Shown one piece after another: positions 13,825 through 61,939 of a stretch of DNA of 64,000 nt (within the stretch, counting starts at the first letter, position 1; every line of letters starts with the position of its first letter). The notes under the pieces were generated by a model, which saw nothing but the letters and a program-made list of their open reading frames with translations, made no database searches and had not been told where the DNA came from. The stretch comes from a bacterium (GTDB lineage Bacteria > Patescibacteriota > Patescibacteriia > Veblenbacterales > UBA10138). Location of the stretch: positions 36,704 through 100,703 of the forward strand of contig JAGVEX010000009.1 in the NCBI GenBank assembly GCA_020057885.1, in the 5' to 3' direction. A program made the position numbers and the translations under genes.

Positions 13825-14622
13825 CTATTCAATACGGTAATTTAAATTTATCTCAATAATAACTTCTTGAGTACCAGTAGGCAAAACAGGTGAAGATACC
13901 GCGCCAGCACCGCCGCCTTTACCATCTCCACTATAACTGCCATAAGATTGAATACCCGGGGCCTGCACAATATTTTCCCACCAACCCATAATATCTCCAA
14001 GCTCTACTCCTACTGCTTGCGCCAAAGCGCCGGCTTTGGATTTGGCATCGGCAATAGCCTTAAGCCTTGCCTCTTGTTTAAGATCATTCAAATTGGCCAC
14101 ATCAAAAGTAATTCCCATAACTTGATTGGCGCCGGCTTTGGTAGCCGCCGCTACTACTTTTGAAACACTTTCCTTGTTATCGTTTAACTTGCGTACTTTA
14201 ACTGTAAGCTGCTGGTTGGCGCTATAGCCAGCTGGAATAGATATGCCGTCTTTATAATCATACTGAGGATAAAGTGTATAATTTTGCGTTTCAATATCAG
14301 CTTCTGTAATTCCTAGCAATTTAATAGCCGTTACTACTTTATTCATTTTATCATTCAACTGTTGTAAAGCGTTTTCTGCAGAAAATTGTTTATCAACCTG
14401 CACACCCAGATTAACATTAGCTATATCGGGCTGATAAGAAACTTTGCCCAAGCCAGTTACCGATACCTGATATTGCGGCTGATTGACAATGCGATCACGC
14501 AAAATAGAAACTGTAATAATACCAGTGAGCAACAACATGCCTAAAATCGGCAAAATAATCTTTGGTTTTAACCACTCGCCGCAGCAATGGCAACTAGATT
14601 CATTGTTTTGATTGTTTTCCAT
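13825..14622 (-). CDS. SIMPL/DUF541 (YggE-like) periplasmic protein
   Basis: 265 aa; N-terminal anchor; ...QNYTLYPQYDY...ARLKAIADAKSKAGALAQAVGVELG...EVIIEINLNYRIE pattern typical of DUF541. Confidence 0.65.
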   Translation of the reverse strand: MENNQNNESSCHCCGEWLKPKIILPILGMLLLTGIITVSILRDRIVNQPQYQVSVTGLGKVSYQPDIANVNLGVQVDKQFSAENALQQLNDKMNKVVTAIKLLGITEADIETQNYTLYPQYDYKDGISIPAGYSANQQLTVKVRKLNDNKESVSKVVAAATKAGANQVMGITFDVANLNDLKQEARLKAIADAKSKAGALAQAVGVELGDIMGWWENIVQAPGIQSYGSYSGDGKGGGAGAVSSPVLPTGTQEVIIEINLNYRIE

Positions 14623-14812: not shown

Positions 14813-15625
14813 ATGGATGCAGAAAACACATCTCCCAAAAAACCGTGTCTGGAACAAATTCCAGCAGCTATTAAAATTTTAATATCAATGTTCCTGCTAA
14901 TTTGGCTGGGCGCGCTGGGCCTTGACCGTGCTATGCAAGCTGGCATTAATTGGAAAAACCTCGCTCACTGGCAAAATCCGCGCAGTACCAACGACACTAT
15001 CTCGGTAACGGCACAAGGCAAAGTAACCGCCATTCCCGATGTCGGACTTATTTCACTATCTGTGGAAAGCCGAAATAAGACAGTGACCGAAGTGCAAACT
15101 GATAACACTAAAAAAATGAACCAAGTGGTCGATTATTTAAAAGGACTTAAGATTGAAGACAAAGATATTAGCACCACTCAATACAATTTATATCCTATTT
15201 ATTCCTACGAACAAAGGACTGGCAAACAAAGTTTAGATGGCTATCAACTTACCCAAACAGTAGAAGTAAAAATTAGAAATCTTGATAAGGTGGGTGAAGT
15301 GTTAAGTGGCAGTATTGAACGCGGCGCTAACCAAGTTGGCCAACTGACTTTCTCTATAGATGATCCGGAAAAATTACAACAAGAGGCACGTGTTAAAGCC
15401 ATAGCTAAAGCACGGGCCAAGGCTGAAACTTTGGCTCAAGCCGCCGGAGTAGATTTGGGCAAAGTAAGATCCTTCTCGGAAAATGTTAATAACCCAACGC
15501 CATACCCAATGTACTACGCGCGCGATATGGCGGTGGGTATGGAAAGCAAGGCAGTAGCACCTCAAATAGAGGCCGGCAGTCAAGAAGTAATTGTGAACGT
15601 AACTTTGAGTTACGAAATTGAATAA
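14813..15625 (+). CDS. SIMPL/DUF541 (YggE-like) protein, divergent paralog
   Basis: 270 aa; same architecture (TQYNLYPIYSYE...ARVKAIAKARAKAETLAQAAGVDLG...EVIVNVTLSYEIE). Confidence 0.65.
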   Translation: MDAENTSPKKPCLEQIPAAIKILISMFLLIWLGALGLDRAMQAGINWKNLAHWQNPRSTNDTISVTAQGKVTAIPDVGLISLSVESRNKTVTEVQTDNTKKMNQVVDYLKGLKIEDKDISTTQYNLYPIYSYEQRTGKQSLDGYQLTQTVEVKIRNLDKVGEVLSGSIERGANQVGQLTFSIDDPEKLQQEARVKAIAKARAKAETLAQAAGVDLGKVRSFSENVNNPTPYPMYYARDMAVGMESKAVAPQIEAGSQEVIVNVTLSYEIE

Positions 15626-16521: not shown

Positions 16522-16567
16522 AGCTTTGTTTCCATCATTTAATTTGGTGGGTCCAGTGGGGATCGAA
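16522..16567. repeat. attL: 46-bp direct repeat duplicating the tRNA-Lys 3' end plus 23 nt of flank
   Basis: agctttgtttccatcatttaatttggtgggtccagtggggatcgaa, identical to 24023-24068. Confidence 0.65.
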
Positions 16568-16769
16568 ACACCTACTCCAATTATTCCAAAATTCAATTAA
16601 TATGGTATTAAGCTCTGAACATTGCCAAAATTCCATTTCTCAGTAGTACGCAACTATGGTCAACTTTTACTCACTTTCATCACTTCGTGGGCACCAGATG
16701 GGCACCAGCCTAAAGCAACTTTGGGAAGTGATGAAATGTGGTAGCTCAAATGGAAACGTATATGTAAAT

Positions 16770-17549
16770 TTATTCCAGTGCTACCTGGGTAATAAATTCT
16801 GGGAAAATCTCGACTTTTCGTACATCTGCCGGATTGAACAGAAACGATTGTACGTCTTGCCCTAACTCTTTGAAATCAAGGTTAGTAATAGACTCTAATA
16901 GCCGTTGGCGTAGTGCCGCCGCATCTCCAACGCCAAGCTTAACTTGAAGATAACCATAGTTTGGCTTGGTAAACGAGAGTAAAAAAACAATGTCGAAAAA
17001 ATCACGCCCCTTAGCTCGCTTGCGGTTGACGGCGGCGTAGATTTTCTGGGAGAGCAAGATATCTGGTGGGGTCACAAAAGCCTCTGAGAAAATATCGAAC
17101 TTGTTCAAAATTTTCTTATCGGGCTGGTACGGAAAATCATGCGCAAGACTGTCAATTTGTATCAGAATCTTCTCCTCCTGGAGAGGTGAGAGTTCGTTCA
17201 CAAACAAAATATCTGGTAAACGCACCCGACACCGGTAAGCATCTTTGCCCATAGTATCAACTTCAGCCTTTAGTCCCTGTCCTTCAAGCTTTACCTGTAC
17301 ATATTGAGCAAGCGCAGCAAACTCCCCCTCCTGAAGGCTAAAATTATCGAAATCCAAATCTTCTGAAAATCTAGTATTACCATATACAATACGGAGAGCG
17401 GTGCCTCCCAAAAATGAGAGTTTGCTCGCGTATTCAGAAGCAAATATAATTTCTAAAATTTTATATTGCAAATACTCCCGTAGTAGTCCGCGCTTGAATG
17501 GACGCAGCGATTCAGGGTATTGCTGTTCAATCTGCTCTAGGGAAAGCAT
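16770..17549 (-). CDS. AbiEii/DUF1814-family nucleotidyltransferase (type IV TA / abortive-infection toxin)
   Basis: 259 aa; FLGGTALRIVYGNTRFSEDLDFD matches the AbiEii GGTAL...R.SEDxD motif. Confidence 0.65.
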   Translation of the reverse strand: MLSLEQIEQQYPESLRPFKRGLLREYLQYKILEIIFASEYASKLSFLGGTALRIVYGNTRFSEDLDFDNFSLQEGEFAALAQYVQVKLEGQGLKAEVDTMGKDAYRCRVRLPDILFVNELSPLQEEKILIQIDSLAHDFPYQPDKKILNKFDIFSEAFVTPPDILLSQKIYAAVNRKRAKGRDFFDIVFLLSFTKPNYGYLQVKLGVGDAAALRQRLLESITNLDFKELGQDVQSFLFNPADVRKVEIFPEFITQVALE

Positions 17550-17550
17550 A

Positions 17551-18171
17551 CTATTTAGCTTGCTTTATTAATTCAATTAGCTCTTCTAGCCGAACTAAAA
17601 ACGTCTTGTTCTTAAATGCAACGGCATATTGGCGAAGCTTGGTCAGACTTGCCTTTTCCAAGAATTCCCTACTATTAAAGCGCCATTCATAAAAATCCGC
17701 TCGTTCAATAATTTTTGGATTTAGATATAAGTAATCCAGCACTGCCTTCTCAATTTCGGCAATTTTATACTTCTGTCCCTTATGCTTCTCAAGTTGATAG
17801 CCGAATAAAAGCCCTGGCTTAATTTTTCGATACGAGAATTGCGCGATCGGTGTCTTGAAGCTAGCTGTCTTCTTGCCAGCAGCTGACGTTACCGAATAGA
17901 CTCCCTCGGGAATGAGCCCATAATGTGAAAGCGCCATTTCAAACGAAACATAAGACGGAGCATACAACCTATTTGCAATCAAAAAGAGCGTCTCTTCGTT
18001 TAGGGTAATATCAGAAAACATATAGTACCCCCTACGAAGCTTTTTGATATAACCATTTTTCTGCCAATCCACAAGCTGATGAAGATAAAACTCCGGTGCA
18101 ACCTTTCGGATGTCAGCCAAAGAAAAAACCGTAAAATCCCCTAATTGCTCCTTTAGTTGCTGGTATCTCAT
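17551..18171 (-). CDS. AbiEi-like antitoxin/transcriptional regulator
   Basis: 206 aa; N-terminal wHTH-like FSLADIRKVAPEFYLHQLVDWQKNGYIKKLRRGYYMF; 1-nt spacing to AbiEii. Confidence 0.55.
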   Translation of the reverse strand: MRYQQLKEQLGDFTVFSLADIRKVAPEFYLHQLVDWQKNGYIKKLRRGYYMFSDITLNEETLFLIANRLYAPSYVSFEMALSHYGLIPEGVYSVTSAAGKKTASFKTPIAQFSYRKIKPGLLFGYQLEKHKGQKYKIAEIEKAVLDYLYLNPKIIERADFYEWRFNSREFLEKASLTKLRQYAVAFKNKTFLVRLEELIELIKQAK

Positions 18172-18476
18172 AATAGTTCCAAAAAGTACTGTTTTTAGTA
18201 CTCTTCGGAACCATTATAGCATAGATATACAATAAAATCAAGGCATCCAGCATTTGTAGCCATTTAAGCGAGGGTGGTGCGAGCTCTGGCCACACTAAGA
18301 TACAATTTAGCAAGGCTGTCTAAGTATTCCTCTGCCTTAGCTTTGGAAATTACAAGATTATACTTCGAGAGTGTATGGTCTTGGTATCTAACGACTAATT
18401 GTTTTGAATAAATCATTAGTCGAGCCCCAAGTCGTGGAGAATATTAGAATCAGAATTATAATTTTTTATAATATTT

Positions 18477-18986
18477 CTACTTCTGTATTTCTCTCGAGGG
18501 GTCAGTCTTGGCCAGTTGACTATAAGGTTGCATAGGTATTAAGCCAAGATCTTCCTGCATTTTTCTTTCTGAAGACTTTTTGATTTCGTCTATGACTTCC
18601 TCTACACTCATAGCTTTTCCGGATTTATATACTTCACGTATCAACCAAATAAGACACAGTGCCCCAGTAATAATAAAAATGGCTTGCCATACGTAGTGGG
18701 AAAATAACCAATCCTTAAAGTTTGAAGTTAGGATTGTTAATACTATTGATGCTAATAACCCAGCTGGAGCAATCCATGAACTTTTTCGTTCAACCGATGT
18801 CATATATTTAATTAGACATAAGTGGATTTTATCTTCAGTTGTAACAATAAAGCCCTCCCCTACATTCAAATGAACAGAAGACTTATTAATGAGTTCTTGG
18901 TGTACAGCTCCTTGAATAATCGTTGAGTTCCTTTTTTTAGATTTTCTCGCCATAGAGCTAGTTCCCTTGTGGGGGCAATAACCCAA
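18477..18986 (-). CDS. membrane protein (2 TM), unknown function; true start probably the internal Met (MARKSKKRN...)
   Basis: Hydrophobic helices IAPAGLLASIVLTILT and AIFIITGALCLIWLI. Confidence 0.4.
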   Translation of the reverse strand: MGYCPHKGTSSMARKSKKRNSTIIQGAVHQELINKSSVHLNVGEGFIVTTEDKIHLCLIKYMTSVERKSSWIAPAGLLASIVLTILTSNFKDWLFSHYVWQAIFIITGALCLIWLIREVYKSGKAMSVEEVIDEIKKSSERKMQEDLGLIPMQPYSQLAKTDPSREIQK

Positions 18987-19212
18987 GTGCCCCCAATGCG
19001 TGTTGACTAATAAATCCGCATCTTGTACAAACGACAGTCACTGATGGAAGGGCGGGCCCACCTAAGACTATCCCACCAATTTGTTCTTGTATTGGTTGGC
19101 TTAAATAGCCATCAACTAGAGAAAACTCCTGATTGCCACACCTTGGACATGGGTGACGGGCAAGCCTTTCGTTCAATCTATTTATTACTTCTTGTCGCTG
19201 TTCAGGTGTCAT
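18958..19212 (-). CDS. small zinc-ribbon protein
   Basis: 84 aa with CPRCG...CTRCG; overlaps the downstream membrane-protein ORF. Confidence 0.45.
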   Translation of the reverse strand: MTPEQRQEVINRLNERLARHPCPRCGNQEFSLVDGYLSQPIQEQIGGIVLGGPALPSVTVVCTRCGFISQHALGALGLLPPQGN

Positions 19213-19450
19213 ATTTAGACTTAGTTAAGTATATTTATATTACCATAAATCTTAAAACCATTCAGCCCAAGTAGGAGCTGGGTGAAACCAACTCGTAGCC
19301 GAACTTTGGGAAATGGTAAAAGTTGAAGAAAATTGTAAGGACTGATCAGATTGAGGCTATAAACACCGCACAGGACCTATATTAGTATACTACTTAAGGG
19401 GAGTAGAATTTATTTATTTAAGATTGCTTTATTTGTTACGGAATTTTTTA

Positions 19451-20149
19451 TTATTCCTCTGACCTAAAAAAACAAATGTCCTCAGACGGTGGTTGAGATG
19501 AAGCTTCTGTTGTTCCATCTGGTTCACAGTAAATACAATCTTTTTCTCCAAATATTACACATAGGCGCGACGACTTGCTACTAATCGCTATACGGCTCAC
19601 CGTCGCAACTAGAGTCTCGCGGGCAAGCGAGGTTAATTTACCATCTACTAAAGACTTAGGGTCAACTATTGTGAAAATATTCCCAAAGAGTTTTTCCTGT
19701 TCACTTGCTACATACTCAACAGGGTACTGTTTGCAGACGCGCCGCACAATGTAAGGGTAATTGAGTGACACGGAAAATTTATCTATGTCAATCCCAGAAT
19801 TTTTATCAATAACTTCTTTCAAGTTCTCATCAAATACTTTCAGCCTTTCCAAATGCCCGTTACTAACCGCAAAACCATAGTAATGACTTTCCCCTATAAT
19901 CTGTAAGATGACGCAATCTAAAGCTGGTAATAATAAATAGCTGGCTGTTGAAATGATTTTATCTGCCTTCGGTCCGTATTTTTCCATTACAAAATTAATT
20001 AGCATTTGCCTAACTTGTTCTACAGATTTGGTAGAGTCTTCTAAAGATAAGGGGGTGAATTTTTGTATCCCCAATTCTTTAAGTACTTTTACTTGGGGCT
20101 TGAATAACCAGGCGTAAAATTTTTTTAGAAAGTAAATCATAACTACCAC
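19451..20149 (-). CDS. hypothetical cytoplasmic protein, island cargo
   Basis: 232-aa ORF; 7-nt overlap with the upstream membrane-protein gene, implying an operon. Confidence 0.45.
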   Translation of the reverse strand: MVVMIYFLKKFYAWLFKPQVKVLKELGIQKFTPLSLEDSTKSVEQVRQMLINFVMEKYGPKADKIISTASYLLLPALDCVILQIIGESHYYGFAVSNGHLERLKVFDENLKEVIDKNSGIDIDKFSVSLNYPYIVRRVCKQYPVEYVASEQEKLFGNIFTIVDPKSLVDGKLTSLARETLVATVSRIAISSKSSRLCVIFGEKDCIYCEPDGTTEASSQPPSEDICFFRSEE

Positions 20150-20586
20150 CTAAAAAGAAAGAAATTAGCTATCATAGTGAGTAAATTAAGTGTAGGATCG
20201 CCATATTCATCAAAAAAATTATTAATTATGACGAATAAAATGATGGCGGGTACCCATAGTGCCCACAGAGGATAGACGTAGCTTTTTACTTTTTTTGAAA
20301 ACAGGTTGTGTAATAGAAAGAATGCCAGCACAAAGAATCCCACCCCCAACCAACGATCAGAATTTACAAAAGAAAAAAAGTTTACATCGCACGTTAAATA
20401 CTTAAATGACATGAAGAGCAACAAAACAATCATGTAACTTCTAAATATAAATCCTAAGAGATATAAAAGCCATCCCCATTTGTATCGCAACAAATCCTTC
20501 TCCCATTGTCTCCATTTTAACTCTTTACTTAATTTACTAGCGTTTTGATCAGTGGACTGAATGGAATTAGAAGTTTCGTCTACCAT
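20143..20586 (-). CDS. small membrane protein (4 TM), island cargo; likely ATG start at 20584-20586 (MVDETS...)
   Basis: Track ORF 20143..20616 begins at GTG. The first in-frame ATG gives MVDETSNSIQ...; hydrophobic helices follow. Confidence 0.45.
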   Translation of the reverse strand: MVDETSNSIQSTDQNASKLSKELKWRQWEKDLLRYKWGWLLYLLGFIFRSYMIVLLLFMSFKYLTCDVNFFSFVNSDRWLGVGFFVLAFFLLHNLFSKKVKSYVYPLWALWVPAIILFVIINNFFDEYGDPTLNLLTMIANFFLFRW

Positions 20587-20616
20587 AGAAATATATATTA
20601 GTAAAATTAGTAACAC

Positions 20617-20760
20617 AAAGCCCCGTGTTAGCTAGGCCTTGCGACCCCATACCGGTTTCCCGGTATGGCCCAATGACGAGTTGCTGAACACGGGGTTCAG
20701 TATCGTCATTGGGTCTTATGCTGCCATGCCCACAGCAGAGTCGTGGGTTTAGGCAATTAA
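20617..20760 (-). ncRNA. GC-rich highly structured 5' leader / ncRNA candidate (riboswitch-like)
   Basis: Nested perfect hairpins: CCAUACCGG-GAAA-CCGGUAUGG (GNRA loop), CCCAAUGACGA...UCGUCAUUGGG enclosing CUGAAC-CCCGUG-UUCAG, CUGC...GCAG, plus a possible pseudoknot CCCCGUG/CACGGGG. Lies directly upstream of the 20586 start. Confidence 0.3.
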
Positions 20761-20871
20761 ATTGTGATTATATATTAACAAAATTGTACACTATTATCAA
20801 TAAAACAAATTTGAATTTATATCCATAAGTGTCTATAGTTAATATTATAGTAGAGTCAATAATTTAATCGT

Positions 20872-21543
20872 ATGGTGTTGCTTGATGACATAATTAAGAT
20901 TATCGATGTTTTGCTTTTTCATTCGGAAGTTCGCAACGCTTCCGACAGTCTTCCATCTATCCCCATCATCATGTGCATAGGAGACCTTTCTTCGCCAGGT
21001 ATTTCTAAAAATAATACGGTGAATATTTTGAAGAAGTTGTACAATAACCACTGTATCTCCTCCATCCTTCCACTTGATGAGCCAGATGGTACTTTTGGAT
21101 ATGCTTTTTATAACAAGGACGATAGCGCAAGAATATTGTTAACAATATATAATTCGGCACTTATAAATTACAAACAGGAGTTGCTAGATAAATACCTAAA
21201 TAAAAAGACTACAATAGACCAATCCCATTCTTTGCAAAAAGATGGTATTTCATTTAATGACAATACAGGAGTTATAAAAGTAAAAGATAAACAATTTACT
21301 ATTGCGCCAGACACTAATGAGTTTGGGTTATGTAAGTTCATGTTCGATAGTAAAGTACTGGTACCTATAGATTGGTCAGAAGTATATAAATATGTACAAG
21401 GCGAGGAGCCAAAAGATAAGGTTAAAGATAGAAAGGTAATCTATGATGCAATGAAAAGGGTTAATAGACAAATACGAGAGAAAATTGGTGTTTCTGAAGA
21501 TTTTTTCACAGCTCAAAGAAAGACCATCAGACGAAATTACTAA
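20872..21543 (+). CDS. hypothetical protein, island cargo (AT-rich)
   Basis: 223-aa ORF. Confidence 0.4.
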   Translation: MVLLDDIIKIIDVLLFHSEVRNASDSLPSIPIIMCIGDLSSPGISKNNTVNILKKLYNNHCISSILPLDEPDGTFGYAFYNKDDSARILLTIYNSALINYKQELLDKYLNKKTTIDQSHSLQKDGISFNDNTGVIKVKDKQFTIAPDTNEFGLCKFMFDSKVLVPIDWSEVYKYVQGEEPKDKVKDRKVIYDAMKRVNRQIREKIGVSEDFFTAQRKTIRRNY

Positions 21544-21981
21544 AAGTGATCAAAAGTGGCCAAAAGTGGCTCACTGGGCCATTTGCTATGGTTAAGGTAT
21601 AAACAACCTTAACTTTTTTAATTGAACGATAATCATAGAGTTGTATAGAATCGTATACCATAGTATTCAAGATGACTCTGGCACACAAGGTGAATCCATA
21701 AGATGTAATTTACGTTCCTACCTCACCCCCACTACCTTAATGCTAGTCTAACGAATGTAAAAATGGCGTGTCGCAGAGAGAATAACACCCAGGTGAGATT
21801 GTAACTGATTGTTGTGATGAATATATATCACAAGTGTATGAAAATTTTCACTTTGACAAGCATTACAAAACATCAATAATTGGCTTAGTTGAGGTTAAAA
21901 TCATTGTTATAGGAGCATATTAAGTTGTTAAGTTTGTTAACATACTAACTGGGCAATAAATATGGAATATAAATTCAAATT

Positions 21982-22680
21982 ATGGAACAAATTGATGAAA
22001 TACTAAAAAAGAACCCCCCAGTTCAAGCGGAGTCTATAGCGACTTTTGCTACTCTACCCATTAGGCCGAAACTAAAAGAGACGAGGTTATTTTTAGATAA
22101 TGAATATTTTAGTGAAGGGTATGCGGCCAAATTCCCTAATTGGGTGACAGTGGTGTATGGCATATTAGCTAAGTATGCTAACGCAAAGGAACAAACGTGC
22201 TTTCCATCATATGAGACCATAATGAAAGGGTGTGGCGTAAGTAGGAATAAAGTTAATCCCGCCATAAAGGTACTTGAAATTCATAATATCATTGCTGTCC
22301 AACGCTCTAGGGGAGGTAAAAAGAAGCCGAATCAATATATTTTACTTAGTACAACAGTTTGGGAGTCATTTAACAATACCTATTTGAATACGGTTTTAAG
22401 AAACAAAAAGAACCATCAAACAGTACCTGATTTGTATGCCAAACAGTATCTAAATGAGTATCCAAACAGTACCCCCGTTGATACTGTAAATCAACTAACT
22501 AAATCAACTAATGAAATCAATGACGAACCAATAAAAAAACTAGATCAATTAAGACAACAACTAAAAAATGGGGGTATTCTTAAAAGGTCGACAGCCAATG
22601 AGGAGGAAACTCCACTATTAGGTGGTAAAATAGAAGAGTCCACTAGCGGCATTAAGGCTGCTATCAAAGTTGTACCTTAA
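21982..22680 (+). CDS. phage/plasmid replication-type helix-turn-helix protein (HTH_36-like)
   Basis: 232 aa; CFPSYETIMKGCGVSRNKVNPAIKVLEIHNIIAVQR resembles the PF13730-type wHTH of replication initiators. Confidence 0.45.
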   Translation: MEQIDEILKKNPPVQAESIATFATLPIRPKLKETRLFLDNEYFSEGYAAKFPNWVTVVYGILAKYANAKEQTCFPSYETIMKGCGVSRNKVNPAIKVLEIHNIIAVQRSRGGKKKPNQYILLSTTVWESFNNTYLNTVLRNKKNHQTVPDLYAKQYLNEYPNSTPVDTVNQLTKSTNEINDEPIKKLDQLRQQLKNGGILKRSTANEEETPLLGGKIEESTSGIKAAIKVVP

Positions 22681-22686
22681 CAATTT

Positions 22687-22902
22687 ATGAGTATTGATTC
22701 ACACATTACTTCTAGATTGCCCATGCTCCTAACACCTACGGAGGTAGCCAAGGCTTTACGTATTTCTATGGCGGGCATTTATCGTTTAGTTGATAAACGA
22801 GAGCTTCCGTTCCATAAAGTAGGTCGTGGCTTACGATTTACAGAACAGGATATAGTAGACTACTTATCTAGTGGCCGTGTTGAATCAATAAGGAGAATGT
22901 AA
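22687..22902 (+). CDS. xis: excisionase-family DNA-binding protein
   Basis: 71 aa; LLTPTEVAKALRISMAGIYRLVDKRELPFHKVGRGLRF is the MerR-like excisionase HTH; immediately upstream of int. Confidence 0.6.
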   Translation: MSIDSHITSRLPMLLTPTEVAKALRISMAGIYRLVDKRELPFHKVGRGLRFTEQDIVDYLSSGRVESIRRM

Positions 22903-22907
22903 ATGCT

Positions 22908-24110
22908 ATGTGTGTTCGTAAAATAGGTACATCTTGGAGAATAGATATTAGGTATCAACACATGCGGTACCGCCTTAAAAGCCCTGAAAACTCTAAAGCT
23001 GGAGCAGAGGCCTATGAAGCTACTTTGCGACAGAAATTAGCCCGTGGTGAGTCTATAGAGCCTGACAAACAAACACAGGTAACGACTATGCCTACGTTCA
23101 AAGAGTTTGCTGAAAAATGGTATCGCATCTATGTTCAAAATAATAATAAACCCTCGGAACAAAATACTAAGTCGTTAACTTTAGGTGCACACCTTTACCC
23201 GTGGTTTGGAAGTACTACGATTGATAAAATTACAGCATTACAGATTGAAGAATATAAAGCGTCAAAGCTTAAAACTGGTTTATCAGAGAAGACGGTTAAT
23301 AATCACTTGATAATTTTGAGTAAGTGTTTACGTACAGCTCAAGATTGGGCCGTGATAAGTGTTATGCCAAAAGTTCAACTACTTAAAGTTCCACCGTCAC
23401 GCTTTGATTTTCTGACACAAGAAGAAAGCGAGAGGCTACTTAAGTCAGTAAACCATCCCTTATGGCACGACATGATTCTATTGGCTTTAAGGACCGGCTT
23501 ACGCTTTGGTGAGATTATTGGTTTAGAGTGGAGTGATATAGATTTTGGGGCACAGGTATTAAATGTGAGGAGGTCTATTGTTGGGGGCGTGATTGGTAGC
23601 CCTAAGAGTAACAAAACACGCTGTATACCACTGACTAATGACATCATTGAGATGTTAAGAAAAAGGCAACATGCTAAAGGATTGGTGTTTGACGATAGTA
23701 TCAGCCAGGTAGTGAACTATTTCACTGCCAGAGATAACCTGACTAAACTTTGCAAGTCTGCTGGTTTGAGAGCTATAGGATGGCACACACTTCGTCATAG
23801 CTTCGCATCACAATTGGTAGCTAAAGGAGTTCCAATAATTACAGTACAAACATTACTAGGTCATTCAGATATAAGGATGACTACACGTTATGCGCACTTA
23901 GCTCCATCAACTTTACGTGAAGCGGTCATACTTTTAGAGAGCAATCCGAGAAATTTTGGGCACCAGATGGGCACTGAGTTTGCAACCCTATTTGACTCAC
24001 CAACGAAAAAAGCTCTTAATAGAGCTTTGTTTCCATCATTTAATTTGGTGGGTCCAGTGGGGATCGAACCCACGACACACGGCTTAAAAGGCCGCTGCTC
24101 TACCAACTGA
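22908..24110 (+). CDS. int: tyrosine-type site-specific integrase
   Basis: 400 aa; catalytic region LRTGLRFGEI...WHTLRHSFASQLVAKGVPIITVQTLLGHSDIRMTTRYAHL (R...HxxR...Y); reading frame runs into attR/tRNA. Confidence 0.85.
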   Translation: MCVRKIGTSWRIDIRYQHMRYRLKSPENSKAGAEAYEATLRQKLARGESIEPDKQTQVTTMPTFKEFAEKWYRIYVQNNNKPSEQNTKSLTLGAHLYPWFGSTTIDKITALQIEEYKASKLKTGLSEKTVNNHLIILSKCLRTAQDWAVISVMPKVQLLKVPPSRFDFLTQEESERLLKSVNHPLWHDMILLALRTGLRFGEIIGLEWSDIDFGAQVLNVRRSIVGGVIGSPKSNKTRCIPLTNDIIEMLRKRQHAKGLVFDDSISQVVNYFTARDNLTKLCKSAGLRAIGWHTLRHSFASQLVAKGVPIITVQTLLGHSDIRMTTRYAHLAPSTLREAVILLESNPRNFGHQMGTEFATLFDSPTKKALNRALFPSFNLVGPVGIEPTTHGLKGRCSTN

Positions 24111-24121
24111 GCTATGGACCC
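24046..24121 (-). tRNA. tRNA-Lys (anticodon UUU), CCA encoded
   Basis: Minus strand GGGTCCATAGCTCAGTTGGTAGAGCAGCGGCCTTTTAAGCCGTGTGTCGTGGGTTCGATCCCCACTGGACCCACCA folds as a cloverleaf with anticodon loop CUUUUAA. Confidence 0.85.
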
Positions 24122-36498: not shown

Positions 36499-37053
36499 TT
36501 AATTCTTACTAAAAGGGAAGCCCAAAAGTTCAAATAAACGTTTTCCCTCTTTTTGTGTAGCAGCTGTAGTAACAATAGCCATTTCCAAACCGTGAATATT
36601 TTCTAATTCGTCTGAACGAATTTCTGGAAAAACCATGTGTTCGTGAAAACCGATTGATAAATTTCCCTTTGCGTCAACTGATTTTGTTGGCAAACCACGA
36701 AAATCACGCACGCGAGGCAAGGTGATATTTACTAACTTACCAATAAAATCATACATTCTTTTGCCACGCAATGTTACCATTGCGCCCACCACCATACCCT
36801 GACGAATTTTAAAATTAGAAATAGATTTACGAGCCTTAGTGGTTACCGGTTTTTGCCCAGCTATACGAGTTAAAGTTTTTACAGCCACCTCTTGCAGCTT
36901 AGCATCTTTGGAACTCTGGCTTAATCCAACATTAAGCACTACCTTAACTAAACGTGGTACGGCCAAATTATTGGTATAGCCAAACTCTTGTTTTAGCTTA
37001 GGCACTATTTCACGACTGTATAAATTATTTAAATTGATTTCGCTAATACTCAT
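36499..37053 (-). CDS. rplE: 50S ribosomal protein L5
   Basis: 184 aa. Confidence 0.9.
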
Positions 37054-61464: not shown

Positions 61465-61939
61465 GGCTAACTCCTTTTAAAAGTGACTGATAATCAATTG
61501 TTAATTTACATTTTAATTTTATTTAAAACAAAAAGCGCTTTTCGCCCTAAAGCATCCGAGAGAGAAGAAACTTCTCTAACAGAAAATCTTAAGGACGAAA
61601 AGCGCTTTTCAAATTGTAAAACACTTTCCGCGGTACCACCCTGATTGGCTAATAACTAATGGCAACCTGCCTATAGCATTAACCCTCTTTATGCACTCCC
61701 AAATTTATGAGATATACACTTATTCTATAACGGGAACTCCCGTCCTTATCTAATATTCAAAAAATGAAATTCAATAAGGCAACTCCAGAGGGAACTTCCA
61801 CTAAAATACCCCGGAAAATGCTCACAATCAAGGCATTTTCTCCCTGTACAGGATAAATAAAGTGTACTTTCCTCTTTCACTGTTTTTAACTAATTTCTAA
61901 AAGAACAACCTGTAAAAACTATTATACACCCAGTTAAAA

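Follow-up and report, generated by a model that had tools for sequence, protein, structure and literature searches.

What is the compact, GC-rich segment that lies just upstream of a small membrane-protein operon inside a genomic island of a Patescibacteria chromosome? The question is raised by a 64,000-nucleotide (nt) stretch of contig JAGVEX010000009.1 (assembly GCA_020057885.1, forward-strand positions 36,704 to 100,703), which is here called the window and whose positions are counted from its first letter. The original prediction, made from the sequence alone, described a multi-hairpin RNA at positions 20617 to 20760, read from the minus strand, and a covariance-model scan was the first check that it proposed. 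Scanning the whole window with Rfam at gathering threshold identified the element as a LOOT RNA (RF03000). The match, at 20634 to 20755 on the minus strand, covers positions 1 to 121 of the 121 in the model and scores 79.3 bits (E 2.7e-13), well above the gathering score of 46.4 bits. A covariance model extended at the 3' end (see below) places LOOT at 20611 to 20755 (minus strand) with 125.3 bits and finds a single copy in the window. That the element belongs to the LOOT family is nearly certain; at its 3' end it is extended by a strand that closes a pseudoknot. We are fairly confident that LOOT is a cis-acting 5' leader, not an independent small RNA (sRNA).

The segment from 20610 to 20765 (minus strand) has a minimum free energy of -69.3 kcal/mol (z = -6.8), and none of 200 dinucleotide shuffles was equally stable. 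As predicted, the element is enriched in GC relative to its immediate flanks (54-55% against 32-33%); the claimed content of over 60% was too high, and the island, supposedly AT-rich, is with 38% GC barely more so than the window at large (39.4%). A permissive Rfam scan of positions 20450 to 20900 (E up to 5) returned LOOT and chance microRNA (miRNA) matches only. Membership in RF03000 and compensatory helix changes across 100 homologues identify a structured RNA, not a coding sequence: no open reading frame (ORF) runs across the element, and its substitutions keep pairing, not reading frame.

The homologues were collected from a one-genome-per-species collection by means of a pattern made of conserved LOOT bases, which required GCCUAAACC...GGCAUGGC...GAAA. 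At least 118 loci matched the pattern and about 100 of them are genuine LOOT; copy counts, host shares and locus statistics given in the following refer to LOOT among the matches listed. Divergent members are missed by such a pattern, and the invariance of the bases that it contains is partly circular. The extended covariance model was built from 30 copies reaching past the 3' end of the Rfam model and was used to align 100 copies (that of the window and 99 others), each of the 100 sources giving exactly one full-length match. Because the pseudoknot helix was absent from the model that made the alignment, the alignment provides an unbiased test of that helix. The parts of the fold occupy the following positions in the window:

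20722 to 20755, minus strand: P1 (UGCC/GGCA), the internal loop CCUAAA/CAUGG and the P2 hairpin (P2 89% paired, 4 covarying pairs).
20669 to 20713, minus strand: P3, an 11-bp stem (strands 20713-20703 and 20679-20669) enclosing P3a and the pseudoknot 5' strand.
20689 to 20703, minus strand: pseudoknot 5' strand AUACUGAACCCCGUG, with the core CCCCGUG at 20695-20689; it overlaps P3a, the inner hairpin of the Rfam model.
20647 to 20668, minus strand: P4 hairpin CCAUACCGG-GAAA-CCGGUAUGG, tetraloop at 20659-20656 (94.5% paired, 8 covarying pairs).
20635 to 20646, minus strand: P5 hairpin GGUC-GCAA-GGCC with a GNRA loop (100% paired, 3 of 3 modelled pairs covarying).
20611 to 20634, minus strand: 3' tail beyond the Rfam model, made up of the linker UAGCUAA, the pseudoknot 3' strand CACGGGG (20627-20621) and the U-rich extension CUUUGUGUUA.

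Covariation shows that the fold consists of P1, the internal loop, P2, the long P3, P4 with its GAAA loop, P5 and a pseudoknot of 7 to 15 bp that joins the top of P3 to the 3' tail. Across the 100 copies the whole structure is 92.7% paired, compared with 66% in shuffled controls and 37-49% when the strands are slid against each other. P3 is 99.5% paired, with double-sided changes at nine of its ten pairs. The window sequence forms P3 with its inner hairpin, the GAAA-capped P4 and the tetraloop-capped P5, and it contains the P1/internal loop/P2 region with its CCUAAAC...GCAUGG signature in the form UGCCUAAACC...GGGCAUGGCA. The columns of the tail are filled in all 100 copies, directly after P5. 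The tail pairs with the 5' side and the loop of the Rfam inner hairpin atop P3, thereby crossing P3. The 7-bp core of this pseudoknot is 97.6% paired (77% in column shuffles, 37-65% with the partner slid) and shows double-sided changes at all seven pairs, with as many as five pair types at one position (CG 31, AU 26, GC 25, UG 9, UA 7); in its full 15-bp version it is 87.9% paired over the 100 copies. RNAalifold selected the helix unprompted. The competing inner hairpin P3a (CUGAAC/GUUCAG, 20700-20684) is only 59.8% paired, part of which may be due to misalignment between subfamilies.

Most of the secondary structure proposed at the outset is thus borne out. The 11-bp stem around a second hairpin corresponds to P3 and P3a, and the CCCCGUG/CACGGGG pseudoknot has strong covariation support. 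The GNRA-capped hairpin is P4, with nine perfect pairs and no trace of the GG bulge that had been drawn in it. A separate CUGC/GCAG hairpin must be abandoned, as its bases sit in the conserved 3' strands of P2 and P1 (GGGCAUGGCA).

Some of the unpaired bases are as well conserved as the helices. GCCUAAACC, GGCAUGGC and the GAAA loop of P4 are strictly invariant in seeds of 33 and 30 sequences, these being bases that are also in the search pattern; the pattern bases CCUAAAC/GCAUGG and GAAA are likewise upper-case in the Rfam consensus. Some 15 further unpaired positions, in the junction J1/3, the linker and the pseudoknot, are nearly invariant. The 11-nt receptor of GAAA tetraloops has the signature CCUAAG/UAUGG (PMC2615604, PMC2275092). 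LOOT resembles this system in combining an invariant GAAA loop on P4 with an asymmetric internal loop CCUAAA...CAUGG between helices, and departs from it at the position of the receptor's G.U wobble, which is A/C in LOOT (CCUAAA/CAUGG). From this likeness we infer that the CCUAAA/CAUGG loop is a putative receptor for the P4 tetraloop.

LOOT is largely an RNA of the Patescibacteria, or Candidate Phyla Radiation (CPR). Among the 96 genome-derived copies in the alignment, 67 come from hosts labelled Patescibacteria/CPR (including Parcubacteria, Saccharibacteria, Microgenomates, Paceibacterota and Doudnabacteria), 16 from records labelled only "bacterium", 10 from "uncultured Gammaproteobacteria" and 3 from contigs of archaeal metagenome-assembled genomes (MAGs). 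We suspect that the gammaproteobacterial and archaeal labels are unreliable; one of the "Gammaproteobacteria" records is an 886-kb chromosome. As for the chromosome in the window, the named close relatives of its DnaB protein are all Patescibacteria, with Candidatus Kerfeldbacteria at 82% identity.

The position of LOOT relative to neighboring genes points to a leader. In 80 of 91 loci an ATG-initiated ORF of at least 50 amino acids (aa) begins on the same strand no more than 100 nt after LOOT, as compared to 27.6% of random positions (p about 3e-33). The spacer between LOOT and ORF has a median length of 35 nt and does not exceed 40 nt in 61 of 93 loci; so short a median stretch cannot accommodate a promoter of its own for the ORF. 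The gene upstream of LOOT is divergent in 61 loci. On the other side, the motif ACAAY occurs 9 to 22 nt upstream of the first LOOT nucleotide in 79 of 99 loci, against 5 of 99 in a control region, and 70 of these 79 loci have a TAnnnT hexamer resembling a -10 box, which mostly ends 6 to 7 nt before ACAAY. From this spacing, transcription is predicted to start at about ACAAY. The corresponding elements of the window are:

20772 to 20800, minus strand: promoter-like site predicted by a consensus scan, with TTGATA (20800-20795), a 17-nt spacer and a TG-extended TAATAT (20777-20772).
20756 to 20765, minus strand: 5' segment ACAAUUUAAU, the predicted transcription start region (family consensus ACAAYNNAAU).
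20587 to 20610, minus strand: 24-nt AU-rich spacer containing UUACUAAU twice and no Shine-Dalgarno sequence; predicted to be unpaired.

In the window, TAATAT ends at a distance of 6 nt from the ACAAU motif, the spacing most often seen in homologous loci. The structure had been said to end 30 nt before the start codon; with its end at 20611 and the ATG at 20586-20584 the actual spacer of 24 nt is close to that. Around this spacer, at 20590 to 20613 (minus strand), the 8-mer UUACUAAU is arranged in tandem, as GUG-UUACUAAU-U-UUACUAAU-AUAUAU. The Shine-Dalgarno comparison was uninformative, such motifs being found before 8.6% of LOOT-led genes and 9.6% of the other genes at these loci (genes were called here by simple ORF heuristics). 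On the minus strand of the window, a scan detected nothing resembling a terminator between LOOT and the ORF. The ACAAYNNAAU segment, located between the predicted -10 box and P1, often holds the palindrome CAATTG. No RNA partner was found for it: duplex energies within the own locus and across loci were equal, and no covarying partner emerged. It may act as a signal for the start site or as an operator bound by a protein.

In many members, parts of LOOT could pair with sequence further downstream: the pseudoknot 3' strand with the spacer in about half of the loci, and the P3 3' strand with the start-codon region in about 20-25%. In about 27 of 105 loci, an exact copy of the locus' own "AAAACC + P3 5' strand" sequence (9-18 nt) ends 0 to 10 nt before the ATG. 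These copies sit 150 to 185 nt from the start of LOOT; in an upstream control region a copy of at least 10 nt was seen in only 1 of 101 loci. Within their own locus, 19% of P3 3' strands are predicted to form a duplex of -15 kcal/mol or better with the sequence preceding the AUG; in cross-locus permutations the share is 0.5%. The linker with the pseudoknot 3' strand can likewise form an anti-pseudoknot hairpin with the beginning of the spacer; 47% of loci reach -14 kcal/mol or better for this pairing, compared with 18% across loci. Outside the window these hairpins are mostly not followed by a U-run. In folds of whole leaders the two states are energetically close, and at one locus (L121) the minimum-free-energy structure is the one in which the P3 3' strand masks the region before the AUG. 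We are moderately confident that in many members these alternative pairings constitute a two-state translational expression platform. For the window copy neither partner is available: the energies for its P3 3' strand (-7.1 kcal/mol) and its pseudoknot 3' strand (-4.8 kcal/mol) both stay within background, and the prediction leaves its start codon unpaired however LOOT folds.

The genes behind LOOT are a mixed lot. By BLAST, 60 of 98 downstream proteins are singletons, and neither a single conserved gene family nor a functionally coherent set of genes was found among the 98. Among Pfam families, DNA methylases (6) rank first, followed by zinc ribbons (4-5), the latter in membrane proteins, and DUF4352 (4); assorted surface and defence proteins, restriction enzymes, PG-binding and protease domains, Ltp and superinfection-immunity proteins and T5orf172 are found as well. 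The most recurrent neighbor is a large serine recombinase (Resolvase + Recombinase + Zn_ribbon_recom), detected at 46 of 99 loci by BLAST clustering and at 39 by phmmer. It lies upstream of LOOT in 35 of 40 cases, is divergent in 34 and lies within about 700 nt in 15. Both flanks of the recombinase-linked loci hold defence or accessory genes, which do not decide on which side the mobile element lies. These loci are embedded in DNA resembling defence islands, on the LOOT side at L100, L175, L139 and similar loci and on the recombinase side at L122, L130 and similar loci. Encoded there are restriction-modification systems of the MmeI and MamI types, a KAP NTPase, superinfection-immunity proteins, a SMODS-associated 4TM effector and toxin-like proteins of the SpvB/FG-GAP kind.

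LOOT occurs on phage-like contigs too, one with a terminase large subunit gene (L064) and one encoding a Zot-like protein (L059). A scan of viral contigs with the search pattern gave 67 matches, 5 of which are true LOOTs. Chance matches among the remainder adjoin group I introns or group II intron domains (L016, 8733-9031; L018, 4758-5040; L047, 12172-12268; L058, 10759-10827) and have nothing to do with LOOT, nor has a 13-gene tRNA cluster near the chance match in L018. Six MAGs carry two LOOTs on different contigs (L068/L098, L130/L140, L126/L137, L086/L149, L148/L151 and L073/L162). Within each of the six, the P3 and pseudoknot sequences of the two copies are unrelated, which fits leader-specific pairing; if pairing specificity matters, the paired copies would be orthogonal leaders.

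In the window, the DNA that carries LOOT is well delimited, and LOOT is followed by a membrane-protein gene:

16522 to 24068: integrative element of 7.5 kb at a tRNA-Lys 3' end, its borders marked by a perfect 46-nt direct repeat (16522-16567 and 24023-24068).
20143 to 20586, minus strand: first LOOT-led gene, encoding a 147-aa multi-pass membrane protein in which a hydrophobicity scan flags three segments.

The tRNA-Lys gene lies at 24046-24121 and the right-hand repeat overlaps its 3' end; a tyrosine integrase is encoded next to it at 22908-24110 (Phage_integrase match, 2e-32). An integrase gene by a tRNA gene, with border repeats of the tRNA 3' end, is what characterizes a tRNA-targeting integrative element. 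A second perfect repeat, the 18-nt TGGGCACCAGATGGGCAC (16688-16705 and 23957-23974), is found some 50-120 nt inside the borders; it may serve as an arm site for the integrase or belong to a longer, imperfect duplication. A rightward module of the island consists of a replication-initiator-like gene, an excisionase-like gene and the integrase gene. Divergent from it, the leftward set behind LOOT comprises the genes for the 147-aa membrane protein, a 232-aa ORF (19451-20149) which the membrane-protein ORF overlaps by 7 nt, an 84-aa zinc-ribbon ORF, a 169-aa membrane ORF and AbiEi/AbiEii. The 147-aa protein had no match in Pfam, PADLOC or PHROG. AbiEi/AbiEii, an abortive-infection or type IV toxin-antitoxin pair (16770-18171, minus strand; PADLOC 2e-61 and 4e-94), occupies the island's distal end and shares its strand with the LOOT-led genes.

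The flanks of the island are ordinary chromosome, with genes for DnaB, RNase T, RecR, L21, AspRS and AsnRS. Public assemblies hold no exact match on record to the window's integrase, and nothing similar to the LOOT leader or to the island was found among annotated phages and plasmids. Two Logan contigs (L186 from SRR6489632 and L187 from SRR6489855) encode an identical DnaB and start 861 nt upstream of dnaB, which corresponds to about position 24039 of the window, at the attR/tRNA-Lys border; this suggests an assembly break arising from presence or absence of the island, or its variation, in the population. Just outside the left border, two divergent paralogues (13825-14622, minus strand; 14813-15625, plus strand) both belong to the "oxidative stress defense protein" family (NF008299). 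Elsewhere in the window, a T-box leader (RF00230) is found at 61588-61889 on the minus strand, matching the full-length model with 114.3 bits against a gathering score of 93.

How are these observations best accounted for? Taken together, they are best explained if the pseudoknotted LOOT is a cis-acting 5' leader of the cargo unit, equipped in some members with an expression platform, an explanation that we consider probable, if far from assured. In the window, LOOT would be transcribed from the promoter about 10 nt upstream, with a predicted start near 20765, and would form the 5' leader of the island's leftward cargo unit, which includes the 147-aa membrane protein, the 232-aa ORF and maybe more genes. 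With LOOT fully folded (P3 and pseudoknot formed), the spacer and the start-codon region would be single-stranded and translation could start. In many members the pseudoknot 3' strand could instead pair with the adjacent spacer, and in a subset a helix could form between the P3 3' strand and the last 10-18 nt ahead of the AUG. In such leaders the initiation region would be masked once LOOT unfolds. The shift between states might be triggered by a ligand, a protein, Mg2+, temperature or folding kinetics. The window copy, with a complete core and no alternative partner, probably gives its operon only the core function of LOOT, which could be to stabilise the mRNA or to bind a ligand or a conserved host factor.

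Several points weigh against this explanation. The transcription start, read-through and regulation are all predictions from sequence. Since the window copy has no alternative pairings, no switch mechanism is apparent in this particular copy, and recognisable platforms are seen in only about 20-50% of members. No function is common to the downstream genes, a situation atypical for metabolite riboswitches, and the tetraloop-receptor contact could account for most of the strictly invariant bases, leaving no obvious ligand pocket. Finally, Rfam assigns LOOT the type of an sRNA gene, and the pattern pre-filter makes invariance partly circular besides missing divergent members. The cis-regulatory idea of the original prediction therefore stands as regards the leader geometry, found family-wide, and the alternative pairings of many members; its riboswitch part is unproven, and the genes downstream are heterogeneous. 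Broader still, and for us a tentative proposal that leans toward doubt, is the notion that LOOT is no sRNA but a widespread cis-regulatory switch of the Patescibacteria (a riboswitch or factor-sensing leader) whose pseudoknotted fold, braced by the tetraloop-receptor contact, would gate the translation of accessory, defence and surface genes in variable islands and mobile elements.

A more specific form of the leader explanation holds that LOOT is the aptamer of a small-molecule riboswitch, sensing for example a second messenger of host state and turning on translation of the cargo. A conserved, structured, aptamer-like RNA does occupy the position of a 5' untranslated region (UTR), with a compact multi-helix fold, a pseudoknot and a probable tetraloop-receptor contact; its mutually exclusive helices reach the initiation region as in translational ON switches, and the 15 or so additional nearly invariant unpaired positions also speak for it. 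There is, however, no coherent regulon and no ligand candidate, half of the members as well as the window copy have no platform, and the putative tertiary contact would largely account for the strictly invariant bases. We regard the riboswitch as unlikely in this strict form.

The database type, "Gene; sRNA", corresponds to a different possibility, namely that LOOT is a free-standing trans-acting sRNA, the neighboring gene being incidental and the tail helix with its Us a terminator. In favour of this, the tail GGGGCUUUGUGUU has Us after the GC-rich strand of a helix, and the sequence downstream of the window copy offers its LOOT no complementary partner. However, the U-rich segment pairs with an A-rich segment and so extends the pseudoknot, and no terminator was scored in the window. 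A same-strand ORF follows the tail within 100 nt in 80 of 91 loci (28% at random positions), and the median distance of 35 nt leaves no room for a promoter. In many members the spacer and start region are complementary to the LOOT of their own locus, which points to action in cis. On balance a trans-acting sRNA seems quite improbable.

Slightly less credible again is the idea of a sequence-independent module that secures the expression of horizontally acquired operons, either as a stabiliser of mRNA 5' ends or as a put-like, RNA-polymerase-binding processive antiterminator. It would agree with the location of LOOT 10-20 nt from the predicted start, with the apparent irrelevance of downstream gene identity and with the conservation of mainly shape across many CPR lineages, and it would explain copies without a platform such as the window's. 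It leaves the locus-specific alternative pairings unexplained, however; known stabilisers are simple 5' hairpins, and no terminators were identified downstream in the window's unit.

LOOT might also be an antisense RNA for mobile-element immunity, of the kind of phage P1/P7 c4 or P4 CI, with the P3 3' strand and the pseudoknot 3' strand as the element-specific segments. The mobile-element context, the two-segment, locus-specific complementarity downstream (one site lying just before the AUG) and the unrelated P3 and pseudoknot sequences in two-copy MAGs are what one would expect of such an RNA. Yet both segments sit inside highly stable helices that covary (P3 being 99.5% paired), unlike the loop-exposed segments of c4; the genes downstream are cargo and not antirepressors; targets exist in a subset only, with none for the window copy; and no Rfam c4 match was obtained. 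This kinship is thus very doubtful.

Last, a captured ribozyme or group II intron domain V fragment, suggested by the superficially domain V-like GNRA-capped hairpin, can be set aside together with a mis-called coding frame, since no Intron_gpII or other ribozyme match appears at E up to 5 in the scan of 20450 to 20900, while the same tool did detect real group II introns at other loci; the hairpin is the LOOT P4 without a 2-nt bulge, no ORF spans the element, and full-length LOOT matches were obtained at 100 loci.

LOOT has been an orphan motif since 2017, when it was reported by Weinberg et al. (Nucleic Acids Research 45:10811; Rfam RF03000); the Rfam 14 paper (PMC7779021) uses the term "metagenomic-based RNA" for it. 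The searched literature, which consists of database and method papers and does not cover the discoverers' 2017 supplement, gives no host, context or function for it. Relative to the Rfam model and to that same literature (again apart from the supplement), the pseudoknot extension, the mostly CPR hosts, the leader geometry, the integrase-linked islands and the alternative pairings appear to be new. The leader geometry and the other new features conflict with the "sRNA" label of the database. Placing LOOT in CPR bacteria, in leaders and with a pseudoknot shifts the sensible work from hunts for sRNA targets to the function of the leader. A leader heading restriction-modification, abortive-infection, superinfection-exclusion and surface-protein genes could provide a handle on the control of accessory functions in episymbionts and their mobile elements. 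To our knowledge, little gene- or RNA-based regulation has been characterised in CPR bacteria, a major lineage, or in their mobile elements. Should LOOT be a cis-regulatory switch, the extended model with the pseudoknot and two alternative helices would amount to a testable design for finding the effector. For the window itself the gain is modest: a catalogued RNA family was correctly spotted in a well-delimited 7.5-kb integrative element.

The core of the window's RNA agrees with that of the Rfam model of LOOT, with P1, the internal loop, P2, P3 (and P3a), P4 with its GAAA loop, P5 and the invariant CCUAAAC/GCAUGG; it differs in that the 3' pseudoknot strand, in the window as in the family, lies outside the model, and in the sRNA gene type attached to the latter. 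Among regulatory systems of known function, translational ON riboswitches such as the add adenine riboswitch work by having a strand of an aptamer helix pair alternatively with the initiation region. LOOT shares with them a compact, aptamer-like 5' UTR fold and, in part of the family, strands (P3 3' and pseudoknot 3') with a predicted second, exclusive partner at or abutting the start codon. Unlike these riboswitches, it has a heterogeneous regulon and a platform in a subset only, absent from the window copy, and its switching strand would come from the internal helix P3 and not from a closing P1. The c4 RNA of phages P1 and P7 and the CI RNA of P4 are processed from leaders and have two segments that pair with sites, the ribosome-binding region among them, in the same transcript or in incoming ones. 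LOOT is like them a leader RNA of mobile-element operons, with two segments complementary to the same transcript downstream and with element-specific, covarying sequences; no match in sequence or structure connects it to them, its segments are base-paired inside the fold, and the genes that follow are cargo and defence genes. Riboswitches of the c-di-GMP-I (GEMM-I) class, for their part, are leaders stabilised by a tetraloop-receptor contact and precede very heterogeneous genes, phage and surface-protein genes among them. The architecture of LOOT is different from theirs, and no riboswitch of Rfam matches it; LOOT nevertheless resembles this class in being a leader with a putative tetraloop-receptor contact placed before genes of heterogeneous kinds.

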